64,000 nucleotides of DNA from Amphiscolops sp. MND2022 (GCA_964187785.1 OZ076409.1:23996001-24060000); one strand, 5' to 3'. Shown: positions 1 through 22,472, numbered from the stretch's first letter. Program-made: numbers and translations. The notes: generated by a model not told the origin, from the sequence alone.

Positions 1-278
1 GCTATAACTGCTGACGTTCCGGGTACTCCTAGCACGATAAAACGGTGGTACTTCTCAAGCTCCATCTTCCTCCCTGCTTGTCCGTATCCTTTTGTTTGTT
101 TAGTGTAAGCAATCTTCTTCGTAGGCTGGCTTACGTAGAGTAGCACAGCTTGCATCATAGATAATCGAGGCGTTGTCGGTGCCGGGCATAGTAAGTCTTC
201 AAGTGCAATTAATGCGAAGTTCACGAGTAGAGCTCGAGCTTGAGCGATCGTGAGAGAAGCTTTGAAAAAGCCAGGCAT
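1..278 (-). CDS. Partial ORF of unknown function running off the window (MPGFFKASLTIAQARALLVNF...YHRFIVLGVPGTSAVI)
   Basis: 92 open codons from the ATG at 278 to the window edge; absent from the ORF track because it has no stop in the window. Preceded by a TTTGCAG acceptor (CAG at 286-288). Same strand as the other element ORFs. Confidence 0.55.
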   Translation of the reverse strand, partial: MPGFFKASLTIAQARALLVNFALIALEDLLCPAPTTPRLSMMQAVLLYVSQPTKKIAYTKQTKGYGQAGRKMELEKYHRFIVLGVPGTSAVI

Positions 279-382
279 GCTTAATCTGCAAAAGCTATAC
301 AAAAGGTTAGACAATTGCAGGAAGGAATTTCCAGGACGACCGTTACAACTGTACACTATATACAAATACAGAATTAAAGACT

Positions 383-560
383 GATAAAACTAAGTTACTA
401 CTGGATTGAAGATAAATCTTTGATAAAGCTAATTTACTACTGGATTCAGAATAAATCTTTGATAAAGCTAATTTACTACTAGATTCAAGATAAATTTTTG
501 ATAAAGCTAATTTACTACTGGATTCGAGATAAATCATTTATAAAGCTAATTTGCTACTAA
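383..560. repeat. 39-bp minisatellite, ~4.5 copies
   Basis: GATAAAGCTAATTTACTACTGGATTCAGAATAAATCTTT-like units start at 383, 422, 461, 500 and 539. Confidence 0.92.
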
Positions 561-1358
561 AGGAAATGAATATTAAAAGCTAACTATCTTCAGCTCAACT
601 GTACAGATTCTAACTACTTGCAGGCAAACAGTATTTACATTAAGGTCCCTTCAGCTAAACAAAAGGAAAAGAATGAACAAGAAATTCCAATGAAATCTGA
701 TCGGATTTTTGATTATACTGGACTGAATTTTGACATTGATAACAAATATTAAAAACAAATACGATTGGATCTGAAATCGCAATTTAATAAAGTTATACGT
801 TGAATAAAAATTACAGACAATTTTAGAAAAATTCCAATTTTTGGAAAAATTTTTTTGAATGCGTAATTAGATTTCTGTCATTCTTTTCGTTTTGTTGAGC
901 TGAAAGGTTTAATTTTTTTGGTTTTTTTGTATTTTATATTTTTTTTGGTTTTTTAGGAGGGGTTTTAAATTTTTTTTTGCTTTTTCGGGGAACTTTTGTA
1001 ATTTTTTTGAGAATTTGTGTTTTCTGTTTCAACCACAAAGGCGCGCAAATTGTGAGACAGCTGCAGTAGAAGACGAAATGAGCGCAAGAAGTACACGAAG
1101 TAATGGCAAGCAGAACATCCCGAAATCAACTGACAGCTGGCAATCCTGTTTCCAGGCCAAATGTCCTCTTGTCGATCTCCGTGCTTCCACAGCCTGAAAA
1201 GAACCGTTCTAACAAGAATAAAGGAAACAAAAAAAACGACAAAGAGGACGGGGGGTCAGTTTAAGCCACTAAAGGGCTTAAACTGACAGAAAAGCGAAAA
1301 ATGGCAAAAAGAGCGAAAATGATTGAAATTGAGGTTGAAATGCATGAAGAAAGGCATT

Positions 1359-1979
1359 TTAGCCGTAAAATTTCACGATTTTTCCTATCGACATTTTCAG
1401 TGAGTCCGCGGTCTGATGTGCTGGATCAAAGGGCACGAAGGAGGAGTTTGACAAGTTCAAATCAAAATACTCGAAATTCTGTTTTATCATATCATTTATC
1501 TCTTTGTCTAGATTGCTTGAGAAGAGTCGCTCAGGGTCCCCTTTTTTTCTGTTTGTATTGTGAGGTAATTTGAAAGCATCTTCTTTTTTCCTGCGACATA
1601 GAACGACAACAAATCGACCGGGACAATTTCTCTGCATACGTAGTAACTTTCTTATAACAACGCGAGGGGTAAGAGGTAAACAATTCGGGGGTGCATGAGG
1701 CGGTAAAGTGAGGGAATTCATTATTGCATCGAAGTATATGACTAGAGTATGGGGTCTGAATTTCAAAGCATCTGTAAACAACTTCTCCAAATTCTTCTCG
1801 TTATTGGGGTGATTGAATCGAGCTCCTCCTTCGGCGAAATTTTTATAAACTATGTGATGTGGAACTTGGGGACAATGGGCCCGGATGTTGCAGGGCCCCT
1901 CGCAGTTGCAAGACTCCCACGGCTGCCTCTCAAAAGAGACGAGGTTGCTAGCTCCTACGAGGGCGACTCTTGAAACCAT
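1359..1979 (-). CDS. SGNH/GDSL-hydrolase-fold protein carried by the element
   Basis: Block I VALVGASN, block II AEGGA, block III DAIMNSL, block V DPAH. A splice-acceptor-like CTCTTCAG lies 9 nt upstream of the ATG. Confidence 0.75.
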   Translation of the reverse strand: MVSRVALVGASNLVSFERQPWESCNCEGPCNIRAHCPQVPHHIVYKNFAEGGARFNHPNNEKNLEKLFTDALKFRPHTLVIYFDAIMNSLTLPPHAPPNCLPLTPRVVIRKLLRMQRNCPGRFVVVLCRRKKEDAFKLPHNTNRKKGDPERLFSSNLDKEINDMIKQNFEYFDLNLSNSSFVPFDPAHQTADSLKMSIGKIVKFYG

Positions 1980-2254
1980 ACTTTCAACCTGAAGAGCAGG
2001 TACTGAATGAAGTTTCCATAATGTGATTCACAGATTTCGCTAACTTTAGGAGCCGATAGGCGGCAGAAATTAATGATCTATCTATATCCTATTCTAATCC
2101 TACAACCTTTCAAAAAACGTGAAGTACAAAAAACAATTGAGGTTTACTAGAATCATTTCCCAAATCTTCTTTTCGTGTTCTGGACCGTCTGCATCTTCTT
2201 TTCTTCTTTGTTTGATCGTTCTATTATATATGTTACTGAAATAGATATTAAATA

Positions 2255-2977
2255 ATCTCATCCGTTCTTCTTTTCTTCTTCATCTCGACGCAACTACTAT
2301 AAATATTACTATTATGAATATCAATTACTCTCATCTTCCGAATCTTCTTTCTTCTTCATCTGGACGCAACTACTATAAATATTACTATTATAGATATTAA
2401 TTATTCTCATCTTCCGAATCTTCTTTTCTTCTTCATCTGGACGCAACTACTATAAATATTACCATTATAAATATCAATTACTCTTATCTTCCGAATCTTC
2501 TTTCTTCTTCATCTGGACGCACCTACTATAAATATTACTATTATAAATATCAATTACTCTCATCTTCCGAATCTTCTTTCTTCTTCATCTGGACGCACCT
2601 ACTATAAATATTACTATTATAAATATCAATTACTCTCATCTTCCGAATCTTCTTTCTTCTTCATCTGGACGCACCTACTATAAATATTACTATTATAAAT
2701 ATCAATTACTCTCGTCTTTCGAATCTTCTTTCTTCTTCATCTGGACGCCACTACTATAAATATTACTATTATAGATACTATTTATTCTCTACTTCCGAAT
2801 CTTCTTTCTTCTTCATCTGGACGCACCTACTATAAATATTACTATTATAAATAAAAATTATTCTCATCTTCCGAATCTTCTTTCTTCTTCATCTGGACGC
2901 AACTACTATAAATATTACTACTATACATATTAATTATTCTCATCTTCCGAATCTTCTTTCTTCTTCATCTGGACGCT
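2255..2977. repeat. 76-bp minisatellite, ~9.5 copies
   Basis: CATCTGGACGC (first copy CATCTCGACGC) recurs at 2281, 2357, 2434, 2510, 2586, 2662, 2738, 2814, 2890 and 2966. Confidence 0.95.
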
Positions 2978-3421
2978 CTGGTATAAACACTAGTTTGAAT
3001 GTATCCAAAAACGTCTCAAAGCTCAACTCCACTCATTCTCACTACGTAAGGCAAAAGAATGGTTAAGTTTTATAAGAAAGTCAATTAAAGTCTGAGTCTT
3101 AGAGTTTTAGTCAAAAAGTCGAAGTCGAAAAAGTCAGTTTTGGGAAAGTCCGGTTTTGGTCTGAGAATTCGCATTTTAGAATTTCACGTTCTTTATTTAA
3201 TAAGAGTGTGTCAGCGTGGAAGGCACTAAGGGCTACACGTGCTGCTACACTGGTTAGAAGTGATTAGTCTTTTTTTCAATATGAAATGTGTATAAGCTTG
3301 GAAGGCTCAAAGGGGCTACACAAGCTCATACACTGTAAGTCTGTATTGTCGTCTCCTGCTGTTCTGCTCCTCGTGTCGTCTGCTTCTGCTCTCGGGGTGT
3401 TTCGTTGACTTTTTTTACAAA

Positions 3422-3958
3422 ACAAGTGACTGGAGGCACTCAGGTCTCCCAAGTCACTTGCAAACCAATACCAACACACTTTTTACATTTTAAGATGTTT
3501 CATTTTACATTTTAAAGACAAGTGACAGAAGGCACTCTGGTCTCCCATGCCACTTGCCAACACCTAACCTTTTTAAACGAAGTTTTACTTTAAGACAAGT
3601 GACAGAAGGCACTCTGGTCTCCCATGCCACTTGCCAACACCTAACCTTTTTAAACACAGTTTTACATTAAGACAAGTGACAGAAGGCACTCTGGTCTCCC
3701 ATGCCACTTGCCAACACCTAACCTGTTTAAACGAATTTTACATTAAGACAAGTGACAGAAGGCACTCTGGTCTCCCATGCCACTTGCCAACACCTAACCT
3801 GTTTAAACGAATTTTACATTAAGACAAGTGACAGAAGGCACTCTGGTCTCCCATGCCACTTGCCAACACCTAACTTTTTTAAACGCTGTTTTACATTAAG
3901 ACAAGTGACAGAAGGCACTCTGGTCTCCCATGCCACTTGCCAACCACTAACCTTTTAA
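3422..3958. repeat. 76-77-bp minisatellite, ~6 copies plus one degenerate copy
   Basis: GACAAGTGACAGAAGGCACTCTGG recurs at 3517, 3594, 3671, 3747, 3823 and 3900. Each unit has an internal inverted repeat CAAGTGACA/TGCCACTTG. Confidence 0.95.
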
Positions 3959-4046
3959 CCTGTTGCTTTACAATGACAACTTTAATGAGGCAGATGGCTC
4001 AAAAGGGCAACATACCTCGATGGTGAATTATCAAAAATTAAAAATT

Positions 4047-7000
4047 TTAGGTGGATCGAAATTCCCCGCACACGCAAAAATGCAAGCCGCAGTTTTTATC
4101 GTTTACAAGTTCTTGAATCAAAGCAAACATATCTTTCAAGGTTTTGAGACGATCGCGGCGTTCGAACATTTCATTGTGAATGGCGCTCTCAAAATCACGG
4201 CGCGAAAACATTGACGCAAAATTGCACACGAAACCAGCGACAGCCCAAGGCAAACGATGCGATGGCTTGGTAAAATTAGATCCGTTGCCGCTGTTGTGTT
4301 CCGACAGCCGTGTCAAAAGAGCGCGTTCTGTCTGTCCTACATAAAAACATTCAGGCGACGCCGGGTTAAGGCTTACTAAAAGATACACAAAACCGCCAGG
4401 TGTTCTAGGAATGTTTTTGTTGAATGGTACAAAAGCCATTTCCGAGATGTTAATTGACTGAACAATGCCACCTAATCGCGAGTTGGTTCTGATTTTGTCT
4501 AACAGACTGAAAAGACGTTCTTCGCGCAAATCTCTATTTTCAAAAATTGACTTGATCGCGCCTAACGTAGCTGGCTTATCTCCGACAAAAGTGAGGTTTT
4601 TCAACTGTTTCACTCGACTCACTATGACGAAGACCTGAGACGTCATCCACAACGCATAGCTACTGTCAGTTGCGGAAATGGACGTCGCCAGCTTGTCGAA
4701 CGTGTCACCCATGAGTTTGTGTGTTGTCATGGCCACATTGTTCATCAACGGTATCTGGATCCTTCTGACTGAGTTCTTCTTGAAGGACTGCACGAAACCG
4801 GTTTGCTTCGAAAGAGTCACTGAGCGCCAGTTCAGGTAGTCCTCGTGATCCAGCATCGCCTGAGTGATGTCAACGTCACCACCACTAGTGTCAGGGATGA
4901 AAACTGTGACCGAGTCACCGGTAGGGACCTCATGGACTACACCAACCTGTCCTTGAGACAACTGCTCACTTTCCATATTAACAGTGACCCTTACCAAAGC
5001 CTTTGAGTAAACAATGAGGTGCTTGGGCTCGTTCACTTTGTCGCTCAGGTGGTTACCTACTTGACGAGAGTCGGTCTGATTCCACACTGAGCTCTTGGAC
5101 AAACAGATTTCGTCAGTAGCCTCGAAGATCCTGAAAGCAGTTCCGGACTCGCGTACTCGCTGAATGTGGCTTTCGAATTCTTTTTGCTCAGCTTTCCGCT
5201 TTCCGAAAACACGCATGACACACGGGTCGTCCAGATCAGCCCAACTTTCCTTGAAAGTGCACTTTGCTTCCAGAATTGCCAGGATCTCGGCAACTGCAGG
5301 GGCATCGATGGGACGTCTCCACATGTGTCGAAGAACTGTTTGGCCTGCTTCATCTGTCATGCGAACGAAGTGCCCGAGAAAAAACAACGCGAAGTTGGTC
5401 AACAAAACAGGCGAGAGAAAGATGTCATTGCCTTCGATGGATGGCAGTTGCATTTGGTCACCGCTTGCAATCACCAGAACGCCACCGAAAGGCAAGGTGG
5501 TCTGTTTCAACTCCTGAAGCACAATGTCCATTGCAGACCACTGTTCGGCGCTGATCAAGCTGACTTCTTCCACGAACAGCACTTCCAGGGCCAGGAGGAG
5601 CATCTTCTTCTCATTCCTGTGATCCAGCTTGTTTAACGCTTGTTCAGCCATCTTGATCGGAGAGCCAGAGGATGAGGGTGGCAAGCAGAACAATTTGTGG
5701 ATGTGCTCACCACCGAAATGCATAGACCTCCTCGAAGCTAAACTTGTAACCAAACAAAACAAACCTTTCGAAAGCGCATACCCTAACGCCATTGTTAGTA
5801 CGTAAGTTTTACCTGTACCAGGAGGACCTAAAATCAACTGATGTCTGTTAAACCTGTGACCAGAAAACAAACTTTCGATGATTAAATTTTTCAGAGTTTC
5901 TAAAATTTGGGACTGCTCCTGCAAAGACTCAGCTGACTGGAAAACATTTGCAATGAGGTCAGCAGACCAGTTCGAAGGTGTTTCTTTGGTCACTGTTTCA
6001 AAATCGTTAGAAGATGGAAAATTTGGTAAATTTTTTTGCGTCAACGACTTAATGATGTTAACTTGTGACTGACGAAGCATCTTCTTGGCCTTTTCCTCTA
6101 GTGCTTCAGTCAAAGTGTCCATCGTCGTGATTGGCAAGCCTTCATTGTAGATGTCGTTGTCAATTAACATACCTTTGAAGGCAGATTTTGCAGCAAGAAG
6201 ATTAGAATCAAAAGACCTGGTACCACCTGGTAAGTACCTGAGCTGTTCTAACACGTACTTTTTCAAAATTTCATTAACATCGTTCTCGTCATATGTTTGC
6301 TTGTCAGGGACAATTCCTCCTTTTACATAAGCGTCTTTTAGCGTCGGAACGTCAAAAAGTTCTAATTCCGTTTCAAATTGCGCGTTGGAAAGTAGAAAAT
6401 GAATCAAAAAGTTAGCGGGATTTCGAGGGTAAACTTTAGAAAAAACAACTTCAGCAGGAGTGTTCGACAAATTGGGGTCCGCAGAAACAAAATTCGACCT
6501 ATTCGGGTGGGCTGCAACGTTGAGAACCTCTGAAACTACAAGTGAGGCATCAAGCAAGCTGTTATCAGATGGTCTTCGACTCAAACAATCTTGAACAAAA
6601 CATGAAAATTCAGTTACAGCACAAGGTCTTAATCGAATGGCGTAACTTTCACCATCAACCCATGTTGATTCCCTGACATCACTTTTCAGAAACCTAACAT
6701 TGACAGTCTCTCTTTTACCTGCCAATTTTTCACGCTTGAACCACCTGTAATACAGTTTAAGTGTGTTAACAAAAAGCAACTCTGGAGGCCTTAATGAGAA
6801 AACAGTGACCTTGTCGGTGCTAAAGGGCGTTTTATTAACACTTTCTAAAACGATTTTTTGTCCTCTGGTGAAAAGTCTATGCGATGGAAAATTCAGATGA
6901 TGTTGTCTGATTTCTGCTGGACCTTCATTCGCAACACCTGGTACATTACTCCTGGACTGAGTGTTGTTCTTCCTCTTCAAAATCACTCCGCCGCGGTTTT

Positions 7001-10000
7001 CTAATGCAACAGTTGGTACAGAAACAAAATCCAACGTTGTTATGACGGTCGGAAGTTGCAGCATCCACGAAACACATTCTGTACTGGCTATGGTGGTGGA
7101 ATCAATTAAACCCTGATTTTTTTCCTCAAGTTTTTGTCGAGCTAAAATTTTTCTGACACCTGCTAATTTTTTGTTTTCAGTTTTCAAAACTTTTACATCA
7201 AGTACATTGTGGGCATTGTCAGGATTTATGGCTACCTCAACGTGTTCCTCTTTACCGGCAGCGTAAGATGTTAAATACCTGGAAGCCACAGACTTGCATA
7301 CCTTCAAAACGTTTAGGCTTGACTTACAGATACTCCACAAAGCAACATTTAATGGTGACATGTGTTCTCCACTGGTGGCCGCGTACATGTACTTACCTGC
7401 CTTCAACGTCGACGTAACCTGTAAACAATCGTAGACGCCAGGCCTCGGCTCAGCCAATTGGATCTCTTGCAACGCTTCCAAGGCTTCTTCCGAATGCGGC
7501 TGATGGAATTCTTTATACCAGGGAACATGGCTTTGTGGGTATGGAGGAAAGCGACATTTTCTTTCCCCATTGAACCTAACCTTTTTCATACAATGACCTT
7601 TTTCGCAGTCATGGGTCTGAACACGGACACAGTCGTCGAACAACTTACCTGCTTGTTCAGCACTATCGACTGTTCCGAAGTTTGCATGAAACAACTTTTT
7701 AAATTCAGCTAGTACATGTTTTTGAGCACAAGCAATTTTATCTATCACATCTTCGTCAACATTTTTTAACCAGAACAGAATGTGGTAGTGTTGCAAATTA
7801 GCAGCAGCACTCTGAAACTCGGCCCTACCCCAAACTTTCAAAATTTCTCCTAAAATGTGTTCTTCTGAATACCTCAAATAATCTATAAGTAATTCAATTG
7901 TTCTGGTCCAGCATCTTACAATGATGACCATGTAAGCCTGGAGCACTTCTTTTAGTTCCGCAGTGGTGGCATTACCGTAAACTTCGTAAATTGCCTGAAC
8001 TACTTCAGCAACCCCTGGATGTTCTTTTTGGTTGCAAGTGAATGTTACAAAAAGGTCTGGTGTTTCAGACGCACAAGCAGTTCCTAGGCGATTTACATGA
8101 ACGTCGCTGTCGACGCTATCCATTTTAAGTACAGACTCAGTTGATGTTAGTTGGTGAGGTCTATACTTACCTATTGAAATTGTTTGCAATCCACGTTTGA
8201 ACAACTGGTTAGTATGACATTTTGTTAGAGATAAATTTAAAACACTGTCGAATGCATACATGATGTAAGCCAAGTTTGAGGAAGTTAATAATGTACTATC
8301 TTTTAGTCTTAGACGCATGTGTTCGTGAAGACCGTCAAAGTCAAACTTAGAATTAGCATTTCGGTCGTCATACAGAAAAAAGGGCAGCGCACCAGGAAAA
8401 GAACCATCTTCCAATTGTTTAAAGAAAATGCTGGGGAAAAGGCATGCTTCAGGCTGCAGGAGTGGTATCGATCGACCTGGCAGAGTAGAAATGAAATTCT
8501 GGAAAAATCGCTGAAATTTTTTACCTACATGTTTTGGATACCTTAGCCGTTTTAAAAGTTGGCACTCGCCATTTAGAAGTACATGCATTGGGACAAACTT
8601 AGAATCATTTGACAAGTACACGGGCTCACAGCCAGAGTCCGTGGCAAAAGCATCAGTTTCTTGGAACCCGGCATCAACTATTAATTGAGGGCAGTCAAAT
8701 TCATCCATGTTAGCCTCTGTATCATCAGTTCTTTGTGGTTGGTCCAGCACAAAGCTGGGCCCTGGCAGGTTGTCATCAGGCTGCTGTTCTGCTTCTTCGT
8801 TCAAAGTTGGCTCATCGTCACTGCTATCTTGGATGGCCTCATTTGAAGGCGTATTGTCGACCAAAACCTTATCGACGGTGTCAGAGTACTCGCGGAAATG
8901 AGTCTTACATACCGACGCAAAGCATTCTTTTTCGGGACAACGCCAAGCAGATTTTCTGGTACATATTTCATTTTCACTGTTGTTTTTCGGTACACTACAT
9001 TTTCTGTTAGATTTAAAGTAGTCAGTAGACAAGGGCAGGTTGTGTTCACGACAGAAAAAAATTCCCTGTCCTCCCATGTATTTTAGGTATCGTAGTTTTG
9101 TTTCCTCATTTAAATCAGTTTTTGAAACGTAAATTAAAAATTTCCATGTTCTGTTATATTGGAATTCTAAGGTTGGGTCTTTCTTAGCACGGCTTCCGTC
9201 ATTGATTAGAGTCCAAAAACTTAAAAAAGAATCGCCGTGCCTCAAACTTACTTTACCGTCTGCTGCAATCAAGTTTAATTGAAAATCTTTACCACTGGGT
9301 GATGTTAAATTGAAAGGAATCTGACGATCCCTGGCTGGAGCTTCAGTTGCAACGACAACAACCACATCATTTCGTGAACAATCAATTATGATATTTTCAA
9401 CAGATCCTCTTTGACAATGAACAACTTGACAACCTTCCAGCATTTCACATAAAGAGTTCAACGGTTCTACTTGAGATGGAAACAGTTCATTGAAGATCCT
9501 ATGTAAATTAGTCACTACTGAATTAATGGTGTTATGATATTTTAAGCTTCTGTTTCCCCTTAAACAATTCAAAAGTTTACAAAGTTCAGCCAGCAGATCT
9601 GTCTCTCCTGAACAACTACAGAGTTTAGACCACAATGAATCATTGTACAAGAGGGAATAAGAAAAAGTGAATAAACTCCAGTCCTGAGAGAAAAGTTTGG
9701 GAAAAGCAGACGGCTCAAAACCATAGTCGTCCAATTTATGCGCATAAACTAAAGGTTTCTTGAAATCATCGCGGAGTGTTACATCTTCTGGACAAGTTTC
9801 TACATAATCTTTCATGCCCATTAATGATCTCATATTGAAGACTACAGCGTTTTTACAATGTTCTTCTATGAGTGAAAACGAAAGTGGAGACTCAAAAGAT
9901 AAAAATTCCTCAGCTAAACGTGCACTGATTTCTTGATTTTGGCAACATGTCCTAATGACTTCCTTAACATCACTCCTACAATTAATCATAAGTCTTTCAA

Positions 10001-11168
10001 TGTCTTGATGAAGGTCAGGATATGGAGGTTCAAAATTCCTGTACTTGTGCAGAACGGTCGAGCTAACGCCACTGATGCGTCCACTATCCACTCGACACAT
10101 AGTGAAAGTAGCACTTTTAACTCCTATTTTTAGAGGTCTTACTGTTCTTACGCTCGAAACCATCAACGCTAATCTGTCGACATTTTTTGGACTGATATTG
10201 CCTGAGACTGGATTTGTCGGAACGTGCACATAATTTAGCAAAACACCGTTTTTATGGTCAGAGCATGTTACTAACTGGAGCCCTTTTTCATTAGTTATTA
10301 CACAAGGTGATACGTTGAATTTTTCCAAAAGAGTTTTAGGTTTCAAGAAATCTTCTCTTGCTCCCTTCAAAAATTTCCTACTGTTTGCATTAAAACTTGT
10401 AAAAGAAGGATAGAGCCAGTTGAGGAAATGGGCAAAAGAAATTCCACTACTTTTTTCAACGAACTCGAAACACCCTGCAGGACACCTGATGTTGGGGAAG
10501 CAATGAACAGTTAGAGCTTTTACTAAAGTTTTAGCAGTTTTAGTATTAATTAGAGTCCAAAAGTCTTCCTTTTCGTAGGTTATATCCCTAAATACAGATT
10601 CAGTAATAGTAGTCGCTAACGAAGGATGAACAGTGTTCATGTTTTGTTTATAGGACTCTTTAAGTTCATTAGGTAGTAGTTTATAAAGTTTTTCAGCGTT
10701 AGAGTTAAACCTATGAGTGTCAAACAGTAAAGTATACATAACGCTTGGCCAAGCATTAGGCCAGTCCAAGTGTCGTTTGTCGTTGAAGTTGTACGCAGAG
10801 CACTGCTGACAAAGTTTCACAGTCCCGTCTTGTATCTCAGTAGTCGATTTTCCGAACATTGTTCTATGTAGTGAGTCGGTTTGAATGGGTTGGAAATTCA
10901 GTCTGTAATTGTTTGTACTAGTTCGGCAACATTTGCCACACATCTCCTCTTCTGCTGTCGTCTCCACAACGTTGGGGGCATCTGGGGGAATTGGGGGATT
11001 GTTATCTGTAACGGCTTCTCCTCGCATCTGTTGCTGCTCTTCAAACTGCTGTATCTCCTGACATCTTCTGCAAACTTCACCAGATAGAAAGATATTGTGA
11101 ATTGAACATCGCTGCTGATTGGCACGCCTGCCTCTACCTTTGCTTCCACTTGGTCGACCACGCGACAT
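4047..11168 (-). CDS. Rep-helicase transposase: Cys/His Zn-finger N-terminus, HUH Y2 Rep domain, Pif1-family SF1B helicase, C-terminal GIY-YIG endonuclease
   Basis: Uninterrupted ORF; first ATG is at 11168 (the track start at 11174 is TTG). Rep motif I PDLFVTFTCN (~8030-8060), motif II RAEFQ..LQHYHILFW (HUH at 7782-7790), motif III RYLTSY (~7263-7280). Walker A GPPGTGKT (~5805-5828), Walker B LFVEE, PFGG..GDQMQLP, TTHKLMG, FVIVSRV. GIY-YIG: GFVYLL..FYVGQT..RLSEHN..PW..E (~4170-4400). Confidence 0.93.
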   Translation of the reverse strand: MSRGRPSGSKGRGRRANQQRCSIHNIFLSGEVCRRCQEIQQFEEQQQMRGEAVTDNNPPIPPDAPNVVETTAEEEMCGKCCRTSTNNYRLNFQPIQTDSLHRTMFGKSTTEIQDGTVKLCQQCSAYNFNDKRHLDWPNAWPSVMYTLLFDTHRFNSNAEKLYKLLPNELKESYKQNMNTVHPSLATTITESVFRDITYEKEDFWTLINTKTAKTLVKALTVHCFPNIRCPAGCFEFVEKSSGISFAHFLNWLYPSFTSFNANSRKFLKGAREDFLKPKTLLEKFNVSPCVITNEKGLQLVTCSDHKNGVLLNYVHVPTNPVSGNISPKNVDRLALMVSSVRTVRPLKIGVKSATFTMCRVDSGRISGVSSTVLHKYRNFEPPYPDLHQDIERLMINCRSDVKEVIRTCCQNQEISARLAEEFLSFESPLSFSLIEEHCKNAVVFNMRSLMGMKDYVETCPEDVTLRDDFKKPLVYAHKLDDYGFEPSAFPKLFSQDWSLFTFSYSLLYNDSLWSKLCSCSGETDLLAELCKLLNCLRGNRSLKYHNTINSVVTNLHRIFNELFPSQVEPLNSLCEMLEGCQVVHCQRGSVENIIIDCSRNDVVVVVATEAPARDRQIPFNLTSPSGKDFQLNLIAADGKVSLRHGDSFLSFWTLINDGSRAKKDPTLEFQYNRTWKFLIYVSKTDLNEETKLRYLKYMGGQGIFFCREHNLPLSTDYFKSNRKCSVPKNNSENEICTRKSAWRCPEKECFASVCKTHFREYSDTVDKVLVDNTPSNEAIQDSSDDEPTLNEEAEQQPDDNLPGPSFVLDQPQRTDDTEANMDEFDCPQLIVDAGFQETDAFATDSGCEPVYLSNDSKFVPMHVLLNGECQLLKRLRYPKHVGKKFQRFFQNFISTLPGRSIPLLQPEACLFPSIFFKQLEDGSFPGALPFFLYDDRNANSKFDFDGLHEHMRLRLKDSTLLTSSNLAYIMYAFDSVLNLSLTKCHTNQLFKRGLQTISIGKYRPHQLTSTESVLKMDSVDSDVHVNRLGTACASETPDLFVTFTCNQKEHPGVAEVVQAIYEVYGNATTAELKEVLQAYMVIIVRCWTRTIELLIDYLRYSEEHILGEILKVWGRAEFQSAAANLQHYHILFWLKNVDEDVIDKIACAQKHVLAEFKKLFHANFGTVDSAEQAGKLFDDCVRVQTHDCEKGHCMKKVRFNGERKCRFPPYPQSHVPWYKEFHQPHSEEALEALQEIQLAEPRPGVYDCLQVTSTLKAGKYMYAATSGEHMSPLNVALWSICKSSLNVLKVCKSVASRYLTSYAAGKEEHVEVAINPDNAHNVLDVKVLKTENKKLAGVRKILARQKLEEKNQGLIDSTTIASTECVSWMLQLPTVITTLDFVSVPTVALENRGGVILKRKNNTQSRSNVPGVANEGPAEIRQHHLNFPSHRLFTRGQKIVLESVNKTPFSTDKVTVFSLRPPELLFVNTLKLYYRWFKREKLAGKRETVNVRFLKSDVRESTWVDGESYAIRLRPCAVTEFSCFVQDCLSRRPSDNSLLDASLVVSEVLNVAAHPNRSNFVSADPNLSNTPAEVVFSKVYPRNPANFLIHFLLSNAQFETELELFDVPTLKDAYVKGGIVPDKQTYDENDVNEILKKYVLEQLRYLPGGTRSFDSNLLAAKSAFKGMLIDNDIYNEGLPITTMDTLTEALEEKAKKMLRQSQVNIIKSLTQKNLPNFPSSNDFETVTKETPSNWSADLIANVFQSAESLQEQSQILETLKNLIIESLFSGHRFNRHQLILGPPGTGKTYVLTMALGYALSKGLFCLVTSLASRRSMHFGGEHIHKLFCLPPSSSGSPIKMAEQALNKLDHRNEKKMLLLALEVLFVEEVSLISAEQWSAMDIVLQELKQTTLPFGGVLVIASGDQMQLPSIEGNDIFLSPVLLTNFALFFLGHFVRMTDEAGQTVLRHMWRRPIDAPAVAEILAILEAKCTFKESWADLDDPCVMRVFGKRKAEQKEFESHIQRVRESGTAFRIFEATDEICLSKSSVWNQTDSRQVGNHLSDKVNEPKHLIVYSKALVRVTVNMESEQLSQGQVGVVHEVPTGDSVTVFIPDTSGGDVDITQAMLDHEDYLNWRSVTLSKQTGFVQSFKKNSVRRIQIPLMNNVAMTTHKLMGDTFDKLATSISATDSSYALWMTSQVFVIVSRVKQLKNLTFVGDKPATLGAIKSIFENRDLREERLFSLLDKIRTNSRLGGIVQSINISEMAFVPFNKNIPRTPGGFVYLLVSLNPASPECFYVGQTERALLTRLSEHNSGNGSNFTKPSHRLPWAVAGFVCNFASMFSRRDFESAIHNEMFERRDRLKTLKDMFALIQELVNDKNCGLHFCVCGEFRST

Positions 11169-11419
11169 TATCAATGCAAATCAAATCTTAAAAAACGCTG
11201 TTGTGTTAGACATCACCAGAGAGAAGAACCAGTTCATGACTAAAATTAAGTTTAACTGGAAATGCAATTAAACACCACTCGATGATTACCAAATTACCAT
11301 TAACTTACCAGACGTAACCTGTTACCAAATACTACCTGTATGCAGAAATAGTAAACTCCGGCACCTGGAAAAAGGAAAAAAATAGTTTAACTACCATGAA
11401 TTCAAAACTACCTATATTC

Positions 11420-11563
11420 AAATTGTCATAAGTCAACGTCAGGTTGAGCTACAGAGGTTTATAATAGCTCATTTTTCTCGTCTATTCGAGCACTTTCCAC
11501 ATGCATTCACTTGCAATACTAGTTGTGTGGACGTTTCTTGACTTTGGGAGGCCTGAAGTTGAA
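11420..11563. repeat. ~140-bp block present three times in the element 5' region (also ~21619-21760 and ~22906-23050); 11420-12300 resembles 21619-22495
   Basis: GTCATAAGTCAACGTCA...TTTGGGAGGCCTGAAGTTGA is seen at all three positions. Confidence 0.88.
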
Positions 11564-12225
11564 AAAAAAATTTTGAAAATTTTTCGAAAAAATTCTAAGT
11601 CATTTTACTTTTACCCGGGGATTGCTGGAACGCTGAAACTCCGTATTTAGGGCCAAATGGTTCTTCTGGGAGGTAAACCGGCCAGGGGAGGCCTTTAGGA
11701 GAGTGTCTGGAAAAAAATCTGGGCAAAAAACGGCAGAGATAGACTGGGATTTCAAAAAATTTCGAAAAATGCAAATCAAAGTTTTTTATTACTAAGTCAA
11801 TTTTCATCCGATTTGGACGAAATTTTGTCTACGGACAGTTCATGAAGTGCCTAACAAACGAACAATTGTACACTTTCTGATCCGGGGCCTGTGGGACGAG
11901 ATATTGGCTCTTAAAAAAAAATTTTCCAAAAAAACGCCATTTTTTGACCAAAAAACTAAGATTTTGACCCACAAAAAAATTTTTTTGGGCAAAATGCCAG
12001 TAGGAAATAGTTCTTAGGATTGTTATAGGAAGCCGTATGCAAAATTTGAGCAAAATCTGACGGGCCGTTTTCGAAATCGATATTACACTGTAGCATCCGC
12101 CTTACGTTGAAAGTCTAAAGCCTTATGTTCGGGCTGGGGGCCCTACCCCGCCCTCAAAGAGTTGGGTTGCTGGTCAAAGCTTGGCACCTAGCTGAGGACT
12201 GCGGGCGTCGTTGGAGTGGATTCGT

Positions 12226-15200
12226 CATACGTCGTCGAAGGGCATGCCTCGGCATGCCCACAGACGGTGGGCGTTGGTATGAATGTGTGGCGTTGACTAA
12301 GACGGTCTTTTGTTAATTTAAATAATGTAATTTCAAAACTACACTAGCCTGTGTAACGCTTCGCTGCTCCAGCTATAACATGGGCTAAATATTGATTTCA
12401 ACTAACGGCCATGTATATGTCTCAAGAATGTTTGAGGAAAAACAACAGAAAAAAAACCGAGAGCAACAATGTACTTTGTTGTTCATTTTCAGAATCGATA
12501 GCCTCCAAAGTTGACGCAAGGTCAACTTCGAAGGCTATCGGGGGTGATAGATTTGACCAATTTCCATAACTTCAGCAAAACCAGCCATTACGCTAGTTTT
12601 GGGATTGAAAATGTTCAACGAAGTGGTCTTGAACTGTGAAAGAATTAACTTTATAATGATCTTTGGACCATTTCCGGTCACATTGGGTAACTTCCGGTCG
12701 TGGGGGGTAACTTCCGATACATGCTAAGATCTTCCGCGACTTCAGTTGTCTAACATTCTATCTTTGTACAGATTTGAATGCGTCATTAGGCCTAAAGTTG
12801 TTGGCATTTTGTTGCACAAGGTCAAAAAGCGGTCACAAAAGCGGTTTGACCCCACTTCCGGTCATTATTGTACCTCCAAGTGGCCAACATGTTGTCACTG
12901 GGTTGTGATCAGGTTGTATTTCAATTTCGATATCCTGCTAGGAGTCCCTAAAACGACTGCCTAATAATGAAAAAGGCTAAATTCTGCCAAAAAAACACAA
13001 AAAAGTGTCATTTCCGGTCCAAGGGGGGGTTGGGGGTGAAAACCACACATGTCGTCAGATTGACCCCAATACGTACAACAAAACATCAGGAGGGTGCGGG
13101 TACGCTAAATCCTCTGCTTCATGCTCAAAATTGGCTATTTTGCAAATTTGGGGGGTAAAACTGGAGGGGGGAACCCTTCTATCTCGGTGGGGGGTGATCC
13201 GAATGCAACCAAAATTTTCCACCAGTTGTATTTTGAGATGCTGCAACTAAGTGTAGGAGTGAACGAGAACGCTAGCATGCCCTGGAAAAAAGTTATGACG
13301 ACACTTCGGATATAACGTCTAAAAAGGACGTTATTTCCGGTTTTTCGGCCATAAGTCAACAAAAAACAATTTGCGGGGAAAATGACAGTAGGAAAAAGTT
13401 CTTAGAATTTTGAGTTATGGCCGCATGCAAAAAATTATCCAAATCCTACGGTTAGATTCCAAAATCGCTTCTAAAACACCCATGTAGGATACTAGTATTA
13501 TATGAAATTATTCTACGTCGGCGCAGGACCCTCCCCGCGCCTCCTTGTGCGTTCTGGGGACCGCCCCAACCACCTAGCAAATAGGGGCGCCCTGTGGCGC
13601 TATTTGGCATACGTCGTCGAAGGGCATGCCTCGGCATGCCCACGGACGGTGGGCGTTGGTAATTGTGTGTGATGTTGTCTAATACTACCCTCATATGTTT
13701 ACTTCAACTTGAAATGGTATTCGTGTGTGTGACACCTCTGGACAAGTTTCAGATCACTCAGGTGAACAAAAGCCTTATTTAACATATTGACTTTATGGAA
13801 AAAATTACAACAAAAAGGAGAAACCCAATTTCCACAATTTTTCGTTTTCTGAACTGATAGCCTTCAAGATTGACCCAAGGTCAACTTGGAAGGCTATCGG
13901 GGGTGATAAAGGTAATCCCTTTCCAGAACTTTAGCCAAACAAGCTACAAAGTATGTTTTTCAGTAGGAAAAAAACAATAAGAAAGAAAAAAAGTAATAAC
14001 TTGACCTTAAAAACCAGTGAGAAATTGATTTATCGCTACTTTTTGGACCATTTCTGGTCAAAATTGACAACTTCCGGTCAGGGGGGTTACTTCCGGTATA
14101 TGGCAGTGTCAGGTACGTCTACTCAATAAATATGTAGTTTATGTTCACACTGGTTTGATGTGCATTGCGACTTGAACGTGGAAAAAACTCTGGTCAAACT
14201 GATAAAAAAACGACCAAAAGGGGGGTTTTGACCCCATTTCCGGTCTTAGCGGAACCCATGACTGGACAACACGTGGTCATTAAGTTGACCCTGGGTTATA
14301 CTTCAATTTTGATATCCTGCTAGTTGGTCGTACAAGGCCTCCTTACCGGTGAAAATGGAGACATCCGGTCTGAAAGTGCACAAAAACGTTCATTTCCGGT
14401 CAAGGGGGTGATGGGGGGTGAACTGAACACATGTCATTGGGTCTCTCTCAAAATGTTTAACAAAACTTCAGCAGGGGGCGGACACGCTAAATCTACGGCT
14501 TCATTACAAAAATTAGCAGTTTACCTAATTTAGGGGGTCAAAAATAACCGGAAGTACCCCTCTAGCTCTGTGGGGGGTAACCCGACGGCAACCAAATTTT
14601 CTCAGCATACGCACTTGGAGATGCTGCAACTTTTCGTGCTCCACACTTGATGCGCTAGGAACAAAGCATCCATGAGTTTTTTGCTTGAAAAGTCGAAAAT
14701 GACATAAAAAACGCAACAATCAGACAAAAATTGCGCAAAAAGTGCAACAAGGACCATTTTTTCAGCGACCTTCACTCCTACACTTTTTCATTACTCATTA
14801 ATTCTGAGCCACATGCAAAATTTCAGAGAATTCTAACGGCTACTTTTTGAGATCTCGCATTTTAGTGCCAGATTTCTACATGTGGCGATTTTCGGAACAG
14901 GCTCGGCACGGGGCCCTCCCCAAAGCCTCGCAAACGCCATCTACGAGTAAAAAAAATACCCAACCACCCAGAAGCGAGTGGCGCCGTTGTATTGTTTTTG
15001 GCGCGCGTCGTCGAAAGGCATGCCTCGGCATGCCTACGGACGGTGGGCGTTGATTAACAGTTGAAGGTGTTATTGGTTTCATTACGTACATGCTATAGTT
15101 GAGTCAGAGGGGGTAAAAAATAACTTTGCACGAGAGAAAAGTTACATACAGATTGTTTTTGACCCGGCAGTTGACTTTTTTCCACGAGTACAGATTAGTA

Positions 15201-18200
15201 AACTATTGTTGCCTTATCCAAGAGAGTCGAGCAAAGTTAGATTAGTTGTTCTTAAAAATTTGAAAGATGTAACTGATAACTGAGTGGCAGCTGATCTCAC
15301 AAATACGGAAACCTGATTAAATTTATTCCGGAAGTTTTCAATGTTACTACTTTTGCTTTTCGTTCAGTGGAAATGCAAGTTAGTTTCCCAAACTGCTTTG
15401 TACGCTCGACACACTAAATCAAAGGAAAAAACAGAAACAATCATTTCTGCGATTTCTCTTTGCCAAATTTAGTATCAACACTGGTGTGTCAATCCCAAGC
15501 GACGCCAAAATCAAACGTTCCAATTTCTGTCAAGTTGAAACGCTATACGGGGTAGCGTGGCATGAAGGGAGGTGTGGGGTTTTTCTTTATTTGAAAGGTT
15601 GGTTCAGCTGGCACTTCGAGCCACCTGAAACCAACCTGATTCGAACGTTAGGACTCAAACATTTTCTGATCGAAAGTGTCTGAGAATAAATTTCGACTAC
15701 TTAAGTCCAATCGTTTAAAGAGCAACAGGTATTTTATTGAGACGACCTGCTTTCAGATTTCCGTTGTAACTTATCTCGCAAACCCAAGAAAACAGCACAT
15801 CAACTTTGGAACCCAACAGGGTTCTCACCATATATCTTGAGGAATCAAATAGGATTTTCAAAGAAATTGGTTGTTGTGCAAGAATTTTGAGAATGTGGTT
15901 GTGCCTGCGTTCGTTTTGCTGGTATGAAACCACATTGAAAGCACTGTTTTTTGAAAACGATGCTGCCCTGTGAGACATTTGAAACGCATGCTTGATTAGA
16001 AACTCTTGGATATTTAAAAACTTCATTCATGTTTTGGACTATTGAACAATACAAATACTTGATGTTTCGTACGTGGTTATCATTGTTTTGACAGGAAAAC
16101 TCATTTTTCTTCCCTTTCCGGAGGCATTATTTTTAAAATTGTTCGATGTTTTTAACCTTGCTAACACCCTTTATCACTTTTGCGACATAAAAAGAGTCCG
16201 GAGTGATAGAATTAAATTGAAACCCAGACTTGAAATGCTTAGTTGCATCTCCATAACTCAATAGATCGATTTGCGTTTTCAGGCTGCTTTCGAAGTAGCA
16301 ATTAAAACGAGAAATTCATTGTTTGTCACGACCGATTTGAAGCGATATGTTAAAAACTTCCAACAAATCATGCTTGTCTTTGTTCGCAAGAAAACGATGT
16401 CAAACGCTATGTATTAAACGATGTATCGCACTGGTTACTTATTCAACCAATTCAACCTGTTCTAATGGCCACAAAAGAGTATCTTTAACGAAAGAGAAAT
16501 TATTAAAACATTTATTGTTCAATTGAAAATTTTCAATTGTTCTAAATTGTATGATCAATTAGTTTTGAATTACCATGTGAAACAACCCAATAAATGTCAC
16601 ATACACAATGAAATGCCCGTTTTGCAGAGAACGTGAAAACTATCATCTCAACTCAATAGTCGCGGAAGCCTGAAAATTGAAACTAGAAACTTAAATTATT
16701 TCGGGTGTGCGGAACACCAGTAGGACTTCAAAATGGTTGATTTGAAAAATCTTTATTGCGGCGAATATCACGTATGTATTACTATTAAAAAGCAATATTT
16801 GTATCTCCCACAATACAGCACTTCAAAACAAGCAGATGTTATTGCTTAGATATAACCTGAGCAACAGTTGTGGAATAAAATAATTTGCGGATTTTAACAA
16901 TTTATCATTCAAAGGTCATAAAGGAGGCAATTACTCCCATTTCCGGTAATCTGGAATTGGTTGGGATTTCTGAAATACATTTCTAGGGAGCAGTCAGCTA
17001 GTTTTGAAATAGACCTAAAGCATCCGACGAGCAATTCCTACACTAATATTGTGGAAAAACTTGTTAAAAATCAAGCTGAAGAAATTTCCGATTCAAAAAT
17101 GGCCATTTCCGGTCCTATGGATATTATGGACGAAAAATTATCAACCACTTGATGTGCTACGTAATGCTGTATGCATTCTTGCTGAACAATGGCACTTTCA
17201 ACTGCAACAAGCGTACCACGAATTATGCTTTTTGCCTAAAAATTGCACCAAAAGTGTCTATTTTTTATTGAAAAAGTCCTTTTTTGACCATTTCCGGTCC
17301 AAGGATGTCATTTCCGGTGAAACTTCCGGTCACTTCCGGTAGCGTGTGGGATAGGTGCTTAGAAAGTATAAGGGTCCCACAGTGCTCCGGGGCTTCGGAG
17401 TTGGACAAATGTGCACATGTCACTTTTGCAACACAGAAAAAGGAGGCGTGACCCCTATTTCCGGTGAGGGGGTGATAGGTACGGGCTTACATTACTTTTT
17501 TCCTAATAGGACTTTGTCTAAACCTACTTTTAGTATATTGGGGTCGAAGCGCTCAACCCACTCCTTCACACCGGAAATGGGTTTTGACTCCATCCAAAAA
17601 AGTCAAAAATTGCGACCGGAAGTGACAAATTGGGCATTTCCGGCGTGGGGGGTGATGTGGGCGGAAATCAAATAACGTGATCAGCAAGGTACTTGGTATT
17701 CTTACAATTCCATACCCCACACCCGTATCGCTAGTACCAACCCAACGCGAGTTATTAGCTAGTCAAGCAAAAAATACGCAAAAAAGGCCATTTTTGGCCC
17801 TATATGACAAAAAAAATGCAACAAAATCAATTTTGCCAAACATAGCGTTATAACCCATCCTAATCATTTGCAATGCACTAGCTACATGCCAAATTTCAGC
17901 TCATTCTGACGGTAGGGATTTGAGCACTGAGGTTTTTTCCCGCTTTTTTGTATAAGAAAGCTGTTACCTGAAAAATGACCGGCCTCAGAGGGGCCCTCCC
18001 CCACGGCCGGAAAAAAATGAACGCAACAGCACTGACCACCCAGAAGCGGGTGGCGCCGTTAGATTGTTTCCGGCGCGCGTCGTCGAAAGGCATGCCTCGG
18101 CATGCCTACGGACGGTGGGCGTTGATAGTTGAAGGTGTTATTGGTTTCATTACATACATGTTATAGTTGAGTCACATGGTGTGAAAAAAAGCTTTGCACG

Positions 18201-21200: not shown

Positions 21201-22472
21201 CAGTATGTGGCGTTGACATTAGTCATGTGTATGTTGTTGTAAGGACCAAACGTTTAGCATATGTCATAGCAAAGTTTAGGCAACATTAAGTCGATAGATT
21301 AGTTGTTATGTGCAATAGCATAGAATGGTTTCGCATAAATACAAAAATTGGCTGTAGTACCTGTTCTTTAGCGAGTACATTCTCATCTCCCCCGAAAGGG
21401 AGATGGAATGTACTCAACTGCTTTGTGCTCTCGGATGAATAATACAATATCAAAACTAATATAAAGGGGTCCAATGGTCTTAAATAGTGTTGCTGCAGTC
21501 TCTAGCTGGAAGTAAACCGCTTTGGAATGGATTGAACGTATTCCGATGAGTTTTGGATGAGACTTAGCTTCGATTTTCAATTTTTGAAATTTTTTCTCAC
21601 ATAGCAAGCTCACACTAAAATTGTCATAAGTCAACGTCAGGTTAAGCTACAGAGTTTTATAATAGCTCATTTTCCTCGTCTATTCAAGCACTTTCCACAT
21701 GCATTCACTTGCAATCCTAGTTGTGTGGAAGTTCCTTGACTTTGGGAGGCCTGAAGTTGACTTTACACATTTTGCGTTTTCAAAAAAATTTTTCTAAGTC
21801 CCACAACTTTTCGCCCGAGAATGCTAGAACGCTGAAACTTCGTATTTAGGGCCAAATGGTTTTGCTGGGAGGTAATCCGGCCAGGGGAGGCCTTTAGGAG
21901 GGGTCCTGGAAAAAAATCTTGGCTAAAAACGGCAGAGATAGACTAGGTTTTCGAAAATTTTCGAAAAATTGCGGTAAAATTCCGGCTATTACTCAGTCAA
22001 TTTTGATCCGATCTGAACGAAAATTTGTCTACGGACAGCTCTTGAAGTGCCCAACAAATCGTCAGCAAGGTAATTTTTGCGCTGGACCCACCAGTTTCGA
22101 GTATTTGTCTTTGAAAATTTTTTTTTCGAAATAATTGAATTTTTTTGACATTAAAAACGCAACTTTGACCCAATTTTTGATTTTTGACAGCAAAACGCCA
22201 GTAGGGTTTAGTTCTTAGAACTGTTGTAGGAAGCCGTATGCAAAATTTCAGCCAAATCCAACGGCTAGTTTAGAAGTTGACCATATCCCGCACCCTCTCC
22301 GGATAGACTATTTTTGGTCATATAGGCTCGCAGCAGGACCCGTCTCCCGCGCTCGCAAATTAGGTGGGGAGATCGCCCCGACCACCTAGAGAATGTAGGG
22401 GCGCCCTGTTGTGACAACGGGCATACGTCGTCGAAGGGCATGCCTCGGCATGCCCACGGACGGTGGGCGTTG
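12226..22472. repeat. Array of six conserved ~47-bp hairpin motifs (CGTCGTCGAA-RGGCATGCCTCGGCATGCCY-ACRGACGGTGGGCGTTG)
   Basis: Copies begin at ~12230, 13612, 15006, 18078, 21150 and 22426; spacings are 1382, 1394, 3072, 3072 and 1276 bp. Confidence 0.95.
14963..21105. repeat. ~3.07-kb tandem duplication (14963-18034 / 18035-21105)
   Basis: Collinear sequence at an offset of ~3,072 bp. Short ORFs in the track repeat at the same offset (15486/18555, 16961/20033, 17355/20426). Confidence 0.93.

Follow-up and report, generated by a model that had tools for sequence, protein, structure and literature searches.

Does a transposase that joins a rolling-circle Rep domain, a helicase and a nuclease belong to a known class of Helitron-like element (HLE), and what might its nuclease do? 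The question is raised by a 64,000-nucleotide stretch of the Amphiscolops sp. MND2022 genome (GCA_964187785.1 OZ076409.1:23996001-24060000), referred to here as the window, in which a sequence-only reading had described an intact Helitron-type open reading frame (ORF) of about 2,370 aa with a GIY-YIG nuclease at its C-terminus. We found that this frame, ORF1, is the transposase of an element with defined ends, which very probably represents a rolling-circle lineage apart from the two established groups, HLE1 and HLE2, and which lies in a head-to-tail array of related units. The element ends, two further ORFs and the arrays were missed by the earlier reading.

The ORF1 transposase ends in an SLX1-like GIY-YIG domain

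ORF1 is a single open frame of 2,373 aa in the window (4047-11168, minus strand), in agreement with the size first reported, and all the Rep, Pif1 and GIY-YIG motifs named earlier were located in it. Its parts are as follows.

4047..11168, minus strand: ORF1, Rep-helicase-GIY-YIG transposase, 2,373 aa (ORF and Pfam scan)
8619..10961, minus strand: N-terminal region of ORF1, about aa 70-850, Cys/His-rich
7263..8054, minus strand: HUH Rep domain with motif I, HYH and the Y2 motif YLTSY
4611..5828, minus strand: Pif1-like SF1B helicase, Walker A through motif VI
4179..4394, minus strand: SLX1-like GIY-YIG core with Tyr, Tyr-x-Gly, Arg, His-Asn and Glu

In the Pfam scan Helitron_like_N matched aa 1034-1131 (E 5e-10), PIF1 matched aa 1774-1911 (E 6e-11) and GIY-YIG matched aa 2260-2330 (E 4e-4; 21.1 bits, slightly below the cut-off of 22.6). 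Neither DUF6570 nor Exo_endo_phos was found in ORF1 at E≤0.1, and the same scan gave no match for the N-terminal region, the first part of which is present in 70 of 106 complete relatives. The Rep motifs are motif I (aa 1039), EFQ..HYH (aa 1117-1129) and YLTSY (aa 1298); those of the helicase are Walker A (aa 1781), FVEEVS (aa 1865) and TTHKLMG (aa 2148); and those of the nuclease are GFVYLL (aa 2259), FYVGQT (aa 2275), RLSEHN (aa 2287), PW (aa 2307) and the helix Glu within RRDFESAI (aa 2323-2330). ORF1 combines, in a single protein, an HUH Y2 Rep with a downstream Pif1-like SF1B helicase and so falls within the broad definition of an HLE. Replitrons are defined by a Y1 Rep without a helicase (PMC10288648), unlike ORF1 with its Y2 Rep and helicase.

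A profile built from eight GIY-YIG copies of this genome was compared with solved structures and ranked SLX1 first (E 4.9e-11) and UPF0213 proteins next, which bears out the SLX1/UPF0213-like type proposed from the sequence. The SLX1 structures matched were PDB 7wme, 4xlg and 7cq2 (E 5e-11 to 2e-8), and the alignment of the ORF1 domain with SLX1 includes the Tyr, Gly, Arg, His-Asn, Pro-Trp and Glu. The likeness is confined to the nuclease core, which in ORF1 is fused to a transposase. The weak Pfam score of ORF1 is backed by this profile match and by the Pfam matches of its relatives, GIY-YIG being detected in 17 of the 18 scanned, 16 of them above the cut-off. The predicted model of the last 634 aa of ORF1 (predicted local distance difference test, pLDDT, 83.5) resembled Pif1 helicases in a fold search; its GIY-YIG region showed the expected strands and helices (pLDDT 75-92), and the search, made with the whole 634-aa model in which the nuclease is embedded, listed helicases only.

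The catalytic residues were kept in most of the 106 complete relatives (first Tyr in 98, second Tyr in 89, Gly in 95, Arg in 87 and Glu in 84). When ORF1 was compared with four diverged intact copies, the nonsynonymous rate (dN) was far below the synonymous rate (dS) in all domains, GIY-YIG included, for which dN was 0.17-0.19 and dS at least 2.7 or saturated.

In two member types of this genome, L063 (G000:C2:102.43 Mb) and L064 (C3:3.64 Mb), the GIY-YIG domain is in a separate frame past an intron-like break and its catalytic Arg is absent; each type has several copies of equal score in the genome-wide GIY-YIG listing. Frames of 188-204 aa were also considered as stand-alone GIY-YIG genes and rejected: in the two that were fetched the frame comes next to the helicase, separated from it by a short break whose ends are intron-like, and on account of this position and break such frames are read as last exons.

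The GIY-YIG fusion defines a lineage of its own

Relatives were searched with a 1,200-aa query running from Rep to helicase against protein clusters at 50% identity. Clusters with E≤1e-30 numbered 341, and the best 150 of these were examined: 30 did not match the helicase end, 15 ended at most 120 aa past it and 105 extended further. GIY-YIG was present in 104 of the 105 that were long enough, 103 by our own hidden Markov model and one (P0195) by Pfam. The Rep-helicase-GIY-YIG fusion is lineage-wide.

Among the 106 complete relatives the Y2 motif reads YxxKY in 80 and YxxSY in 19, and Walker B reads DE in 43 and EE in 36, with 27 unparsed. The helicase motifs had been called divergent on two counts; the THKLMG-type motif V (T-x-H-x-x-M-G) is indeed common in the group, whereas the EE form of Walker B is not lineage-wide. 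The 18 relatives scanned with Pfam contained neither DUF6570 nor an AP endonuclease, and four contained an OTU domain. The GIY-YIG domain stands at the C-terminus, where Helentrons have an AP endonuclease, as had been claimed. A genome-wide DUF6570 search revealed no GIY-type locus among those listed.

The relatives include XP_039257388.1, a protein of the tunicate Styela clava, and a PIF1+GIY-YIG Atlas cluster tied to diatoms by four members of known phylum is a weak lead to diatom membership. Phage and plasmid records gave weak Pif1 matches only (1 and 3 records, respectively). Searches for the DNA context of relatives returned no match for P0087 in viral contigs or for P0022 and P0024 in metagenome contigs, and the alignment query used for this context gave no conserved stretch.

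Phylogenies were built for both domains. The Rep tree (36 rows, IQ-TREE mixture model) supported the GIY group at 100/100, HLE1 at 99/97 and HLE2 at 99/96. The helicase tree (73 rows including 11 prokaryotic Pif1-like outgroups, FastTree, with a long-branch warning) supported the same groups at 100, 100 and 99, the branching order of the three not being settled. The HLE1 and HLE2 references were frames from this genome and their relatives, the HLE2 set including a Danio rerio replicase/helicase/endonuclease; HLE2 contributed 22 rows to the helicase tree and 6 to the Rep tree. Seven rows with short matches and 14 by thinning were omitted from the helicase tree, and 41 unparsed rows, mostly HLE2, and 6 by thinning from the Rep tree. 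With the references so sampled, the transposase fell outside the HLE1 clade and outside the HLE2 clade in both trees, suggesting, in line with the sequence-only reading, that a rolling-circle lineage distinct from both is very probable.

Intact-looking HLE1 and HLE2 frames (L045-L056) are present in the same genome, which brings three Helitron-like lineages together. Two of these loci (L055 and L056), on small contigs, look foreign in composition and may come from a co-sequenced organism.

The autonomous element and its ends

The element that carries ORF1 extends 1.5 kb beyond the left edge of the window and ends 5'-GTG…CTAG-3'. Its features are as follows.

1..12187, minus strand: autonomous element, 13,675 bp, 5' end GTGCC at 12187, 3' end ...CACGTCTAG at G000:C1:23994513 (from sister copies)
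3515..3956, no strand assigned: 77-bp minisatellite, 5.8 copies, within the element and common to the sister copies
2266..2976, no strand assigned: 76-bp minisatellite, 9.3 copies, within the element (tandem repeat scan)
1359..1979, minus strand: ORF2, 206 aa, likely SGNH/GDSL fold (Atlas feature score 0.95 to GDSL clusters)
1..278, minus strand: start of ORF3, 352 aa, continuing past the window edge, likely RPA-like OB-fold

Four copies, on C1, C2, C6 and C8, are 13,675-13,750 bp long and 94-99% identical and have different neighbours; all start with GTGCC and finish with CACGTCTAG. The window element is intact and recently copied. It is near-identical to the C2, C6 and C8 copies from the Rep domain on and diverged from them over the first 4 kb.

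A Pfam scan gave no match for ORF2, which is likely an SGNH/GDSL-fold protein by its Atlas score. ORF3 is likely an RPA-like OB-fold protein that binds single-stranded DNA, as suggested by a low-confidence model (pLDDT 52) whose best Foldseek matches were RPA (E 2e-4; best Z 7.3). Members only about 35% identical in ORF1 are also accompanied by homologues of ORF2 and ORF3. Genome-wide, 255 candidate GIY-YIG matches were found; among the 150 that were scored, at least 37 lie in open frames of at least 2,300 aa, and these long frames cluster at C1:73-76 Mb, C2:102-104 Mb and C3:2.4-3.8 Mb.

The 5'-TC start of HLE1 was absent, all sister copies beginning with GTG; the 126 unit junctions analyzed were themselves defined by GTG. 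The 3' tetranucleotide at these junctions was CTAG in 101, CTGG in 21, CTTG in 3 and CTCG in 1. Many short units carry a subterminal 3' hairpin, one motif of which had 4,008 exact matches in the genome and none in the control. Terminal inverted repeats (TIRs) were not evident on reading the ends, no search having been aimed at them, and when six end regions were folded every z-score was -1.9 or higher. At the 5' end, each head has a conserved G-rich core between pairing arms, and the arms covary: the mean stem over 40 head types was 4.9 bp, as against 3.8 bp with arms swapped, and none of 2,000 swaps reached as high. The pattern used for head detection took in the G-rich core and not the arms. 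The case for a 5' hairpin rests on this covariation.

Insertion occurs at CTNG^DT without target duplication

Ends and target rule alike were examined in this genome only. In one C8 array, a unit is interrupted by inserted units at two sites separated by 13 bases, and the uninterrupted paralogues read CTTG^GT and CTGG^GT, with no base gained or lost. The empty paralogous site of a solitary unit (L115) reads CTTG^AT, again with no base gained or lost. Insertion at these three sites therefore took place without target duplication, which, with the exact ends and the multiple copies, also accords with an HLE in the broad sense.

The base following the end was counted genome-wide for one tail type. 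GTG, the start of the next unit, followed 1,874 of 1,942 counted ends (about 96%), and 68 ends had other followers: 43 had A or T, never C, and 25 had G-N-H, all of them GT (G-V-G followers lie outside this count). The second base was T in 27 of the 30 fetched from the 43 and in 25 of 25. Among host-flanked first units, seven of nine 5' ends follow CTNG (CTAG 3, CTTG 2, CTGG 1, CTCG 1); this count excludes L127 and L142, whose flanks match array DNA, and L116, L136 and L139, in which the farthest head still follows a tail. The empty sites, the follower counts and the host flanks together indicate, with good confidence, that the target in this genome is CTNG^DT, the cut position being uncertain by one base. 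The A^T target of HLE1 was not seen at the three empty sites, nor was the T^T target of HLE2/Helentrons at these sites or in the genome-wide end counts.

The target motif occurs 4 times per kb of host DNA, and 313 kb of arrays holding 115 junctions contain 328 unused motifs. Because the motif is so common and so often unused, it does not by itself explain why about 96% of ends abut a head. A pairwise search for the 5' ends of dispersed copies was uninformative. One further solitary unit (L112, G000:C2:16.31 Mb) lies, by eye, apparently at CTAG^AT in tRNA-like or SINE-like sequence.

Units are chained head to tail in mixed arrays

Upstream of the autonomous element the window continues with the following units.

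12188..13573, minus strand: non-autonomous unit, 1,386 bp, GTG...CTAG, with a 3'-subterminal hairpin at about 12240-12259
13574..14967, minus strand: non-autonomous unit, 1,394 bp, GTG...CTAG
14968..18039, minus strand: non-autonomous unit, 3,072 bp, GTG...CTGG
18040..21110, minus strand: non-autonomous unit, 3,071 bp, GTG...CTGG, 92% like the unit at 14968..18039
21111..22385, minus strand: non-autonomous unit, 1,275 bp, GTG...CTAG
22386..23689, minus strand: non-autonomous unit, 1,304 bp, GTG...CTAG, 5'-most of the array
23690..23693, minus strand: host CTGG abutting the 5' edge of the array, upstream half of the target site

The window array comprises the autonomous element and six gene-less units of 1.3-3 kb in a single orientation. 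The 300 bp beyond the host CTGG had no match to the array sequences examined. An RRM exon (23792-24022, plus strand; RRM_1, E 3e-16), which looks like that of a nuclear poly(A)-binding protein, starts about 100 bp from this edge; the array may lie inside an intron of the RRM gene, of which the upstream exon was not found.

At each of the 126 junctions the join tetranucleotide is followed by GTG, and 40 head types and 47 tail types were distinguished. The join tetranucleotide tracks the tail type of the upstream unit. Pairs of units sharing a head also shared their own tail in 104 of 274 cases, whereas pairs sharing a tail shared the next head in 25 of 225, against a background of about 4%; tail types seen at least four times had 2-6 different successors each. 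The stronger linkage of a head to its own tail than of a tail to the next head indicates that shuffling of units at the junctions predominates, alongside some tandem duplication. Members whose proteins are about 35% identical occur in one array and have the same junctions.

Clustering of the copies had first led us to consider insertion into rRNA, tRNA or snRNA clusters, which was rejected when the flanks proved to be relatives of the element itself; no RNA-family scan was made. Large clusters of units and intact frames lie at G000:C1:70.4-76.5 Mb, C2:102-103.9 Mb, C3:2.4-3.9 Mb, C1:38.04-38.17 Mb and C1:3.48-3.63 Mb, possibly centromeric or subtelomeric compartments. Left of the window the array contains an assembly gap of 200 N (G000:C1:23978673-23978872) with units in opposite orientation across it. 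Since they lie across the gap, these units are not evidence of inversion, and the gap is probably a mis-oriented join.

Comparison with known systems

HLE2/Helentrons resemble the window lineage in their HUH Y2 Rep-Pif1 fusion with a C-terminal nuclease, optional OTU domain, accessory gene for single-stranded DNA binding and gene-less derivatives; the window lineage differs in having an SLX1-like GIY-YIG domain in place of the AP endonuclease, no DUF6570, CTNG^DT rather than T^T and a branch of its own in both trees (PMC11417382). HLE1, including Helraiser, has in common with it insertion without target duplication and head-to-tail junctions, and may also share a 3' CTRR/CTAG and, in many units, a 3' hairpin, whereas the 5' GTG instead of TC, CTNG^DT instead of A^T and the extra nuclease set the window lineage apart (PMC4778049, PMC5876387). 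Head-to-tail joins are the rule here and occasional in HLE1 (PMC2267711). Helraiser matched the query only in the N-terminal part of the helicase (E 9e-7). In Helraiser, precise end-to-end junctions are both formed and cut again by the HUH domain, and circles are intermediates (PMC4778049, PMC5876387).

The third HLE class, from Paramecium, also lies outside HLE1 and HLE2, has a terminal CCAA that matches its target repeat and a strict orientation, and shares internal minisatellites and gene-less derivatives (PMC13085455). On the other hand, its CCAA ends and telomeric target were not encountered here, and two of its ORFs, examined by eye, end about 80-85 codons past helicase motif VI, leaving no room for GIY-YIG, and carry T-I-H-x-x-Q-G where the window lineage has T-x-H-x-x-M-G; 'GIY' appears nowhere in the available text of that paper (PMC13085455). 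Neither of our trees includes Paramecium sequences.

In its target rule the lineage resembles IS91, a Y2 HUH element with a cut site like its target, no duplication and subterminal palindromes; IS91 uses CTTG, GTTC, GTCC and CTCG, its terIS is cut at CTCG and the HUH transposase acts alone (PMC13181058). CTTG, GTCC and CTCG are shared with the sites found here, whereas GTTC, a major IS91 target, was not seen (PMC13181058). IS91 is a small bacterial element without helicase or GIY-YIG (PMC13181058).

A full-text literature search, covering few subscription papers and with Repbase and Dfam outside its scope, found no Rep-Pif1-GIY-YIG lineage, no GTG/CTAG ends and no CTNG^DT target. The earlier reading could not confirm that the architecture is unreported, and the word needs a qualification, since Li et al (2024) describe a captured GIY-YIG domain in one HLE2 family of Sphagnum magellanicum, HelenSM92, with short TIRs and T^T sites (PMC11417382). 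HelenSM92, which like the window lineage has GIY-YIG within a Helitron-like element, is set apart from it by this description and is not among the sequences in our trees. The unclassified HLE clusters mentioned by the same authors (PMC11417382) may include the GIY group.

Proposed mechanism and alternatives

The domains, the lineage, the ends, the target sequence, the lack of duplication and the mixed head-to-tail arrays of one orientation were observed in the genome. The mechanism we favour, and regard as reasonably probable as a whole, is that of an autonomous rolling-circle transposon in which the HUH domain peels off the element and cuts the target and the SLX1-like domain resolves branched DNA. 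By analogy with Helraiser and IS91, the HUH domain would nick at CTNG^GT and the helicase would unwind one strand, which ORF3 would coat; termination at the next CTNG would yield a circle with a CTAG^GT junction, and the HUH domain would then join the circle into a target resembling that junction. Exchange of one strand would leave a flap or four-way junction for the GIY-YIG domain to cut, and gene-less units of 1-3 kb with the same ends would be mobilised in trans. SLX1 cuts Holliday junctions and flaps, and resolution of branched intermediates is likely the task of the ORF1 domain, likelier than target choice. Insertion would leave CTNG^G at the 5' side and CTAG^D at the 3' side, so that targets are recreated; end-to-end chains are likely because the 3' end of each copy recreates the target of the next, and resident junctions are probably over-used through binding of the transposase to the conserved hairpin that lies about 40-60 nt in from the 5' ends.

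Several observations weigh against this mechanism or the results on which it builds. Neither activity nor expression nor any new insertion was observed. At two of the nine host-flanked 5' ends the flank is other than CTNG, being GTCC at one and unclear at the other. No 5' end could be recognised within 4.5 kb for 28 of the 40 dispersed ends fetched, and some of the 1,874 GTG followers may be host GTG. The strong 3' hairpin of many short units is not evident at the 3' end of the autonomous copy. In some multicopy members of this genome (L063, L064 and P0014) the Arg, the Glu or both are missing from the GIY-YIG domain, and the nuclease may therefore be dispensable or be provided in trans. In the arrays 24 of 115 neighbouring units have the same head type, and the sister copies are mosaic, with 77-93% identity over the first 4 kb and about 99% beyond, which suggests that N-terminal regions were exchanged between families; like neighbours and mosaic sisters imply that the arrays are shaped by tandem duplication and recombination as well. 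The tree references were chosen by similarity to the HLE1 and HLE2 of this genome, and rare HLE2 subgroups and the HELIANO unclassified clusters lie outside the sample.

The sequence-only reading had raised the possibility that the nuclease nicks the target. In that case the GIY-YIG domain, like the AP endonuclease of Helentrons or the endonuclease of Penelope, would set or assist the choice of site; it occupies the Helentron endonuclease position and is kept across the lineage, and a nick on the opposite strand could open a duplex target for the HUH domain. We consider this unlikely, because the target copies the terminal tetranucleotide of the element and resembles that of IS91, which is chosen by the HUH transposase alone (PMC13181058), and this points to the HUH domain instead. 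Furthermore, the nearest structures are those of the structure-specific SLX1 and not of homing endonucleases, the three empty-site comparisons showed neither duplication nor deletion, and members without the catalytic Arg occupy the same junctions.

The arrays might alternatively have arisen mainly through read-through rolling-circle concatemers, unequal crossing-over and the loss of dispersed copies by purging, from an element with a preference for the motif and none for junctions. Rolling-circle tandem Helitron arrays have been described (PMC5876387), and the like neighbours, the two 3-kb units of the window, which are tandem relatives, and the mosaic copies agree with such an origin. Concatemers are, however, expected to give identical neighbours, whereas most neighbours differ and the recurrent tail types have several successors; each of the four near-identical 13.7-kb copies abuts, at exact junctions, neighbours that differ from copy to copy on either side, and families 35% alike in protein occur within one array. 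This origin is a possibility to be taken seriously, although we rather doubt that it accounts for most of the arrays. Far less probable is that the lineage is a divergent HLE2/Helentron subgroup with a swapped endonuclease, akin to HelenSM92. That family does combine HLE2 with GIY-YIG (PMC11417382), OTU occurs in both groups and SGNH (PF13472) is found in two HLE2 proteins, but the HLE2 marker DUF6570 is absent from the query and the 18 relatives, HLE2 splits off without the GIY group in both trees, and the T^T sites and TIRs that HelenSM92 possesses (PMC11417382) were not seen here, as far as ends read without a dedicated search for inverted repeats can tell.

Other features of the window

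Outside the array, CCDC39 is encoded at 60529-63255 (plus strand) by a single 908-aa open frame that is apparently intronless (E 2e-123). A 536-aa open frame with an RGS domain lies at 29830-31440 (plus strand), and a 22-bp tandem repeat of 12.5 copies at 50415-50686.

Significance

What is new here is the definition of the element ends and target, with IS91-like target selection and self-chaining arrays described in one genome. HLEs have been classed as two groups and, recently, a Paramecium class; the GIY group adds a further large lineage, weakly seen by Pfam. Genome engineers would be interested in a unit of 13.7 kb that prefers its own junctions and uses a target of 4-6 bases without duplicating it. 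The chaining of units also explains large mixed tandem arrays that repeat pipelines would label unclassified satellite. Since intact, recently copied members and defined ends are at hand, it can be tested why a second nuclease is carried and how an HUH transposase picks its target. A more far-reaching proposal, which we put forward as speculative and more probably wrong than right, is that the group is an ancient separate eukaryotic class, extending from animals to diatoms, in which HUH-driven exchange of one strand between a circle junction and a resident CTAG^GT junction, and resolution of the four-way intermediate by the SLX1-like domain, built megabase arrays of dozens of families. If this were true, the arrays would be a safe harbour made by the elements themselves, and the lineage would give eukaryotes their first parallel to IS91-type target selection, here coupled to a resolvase of its own.

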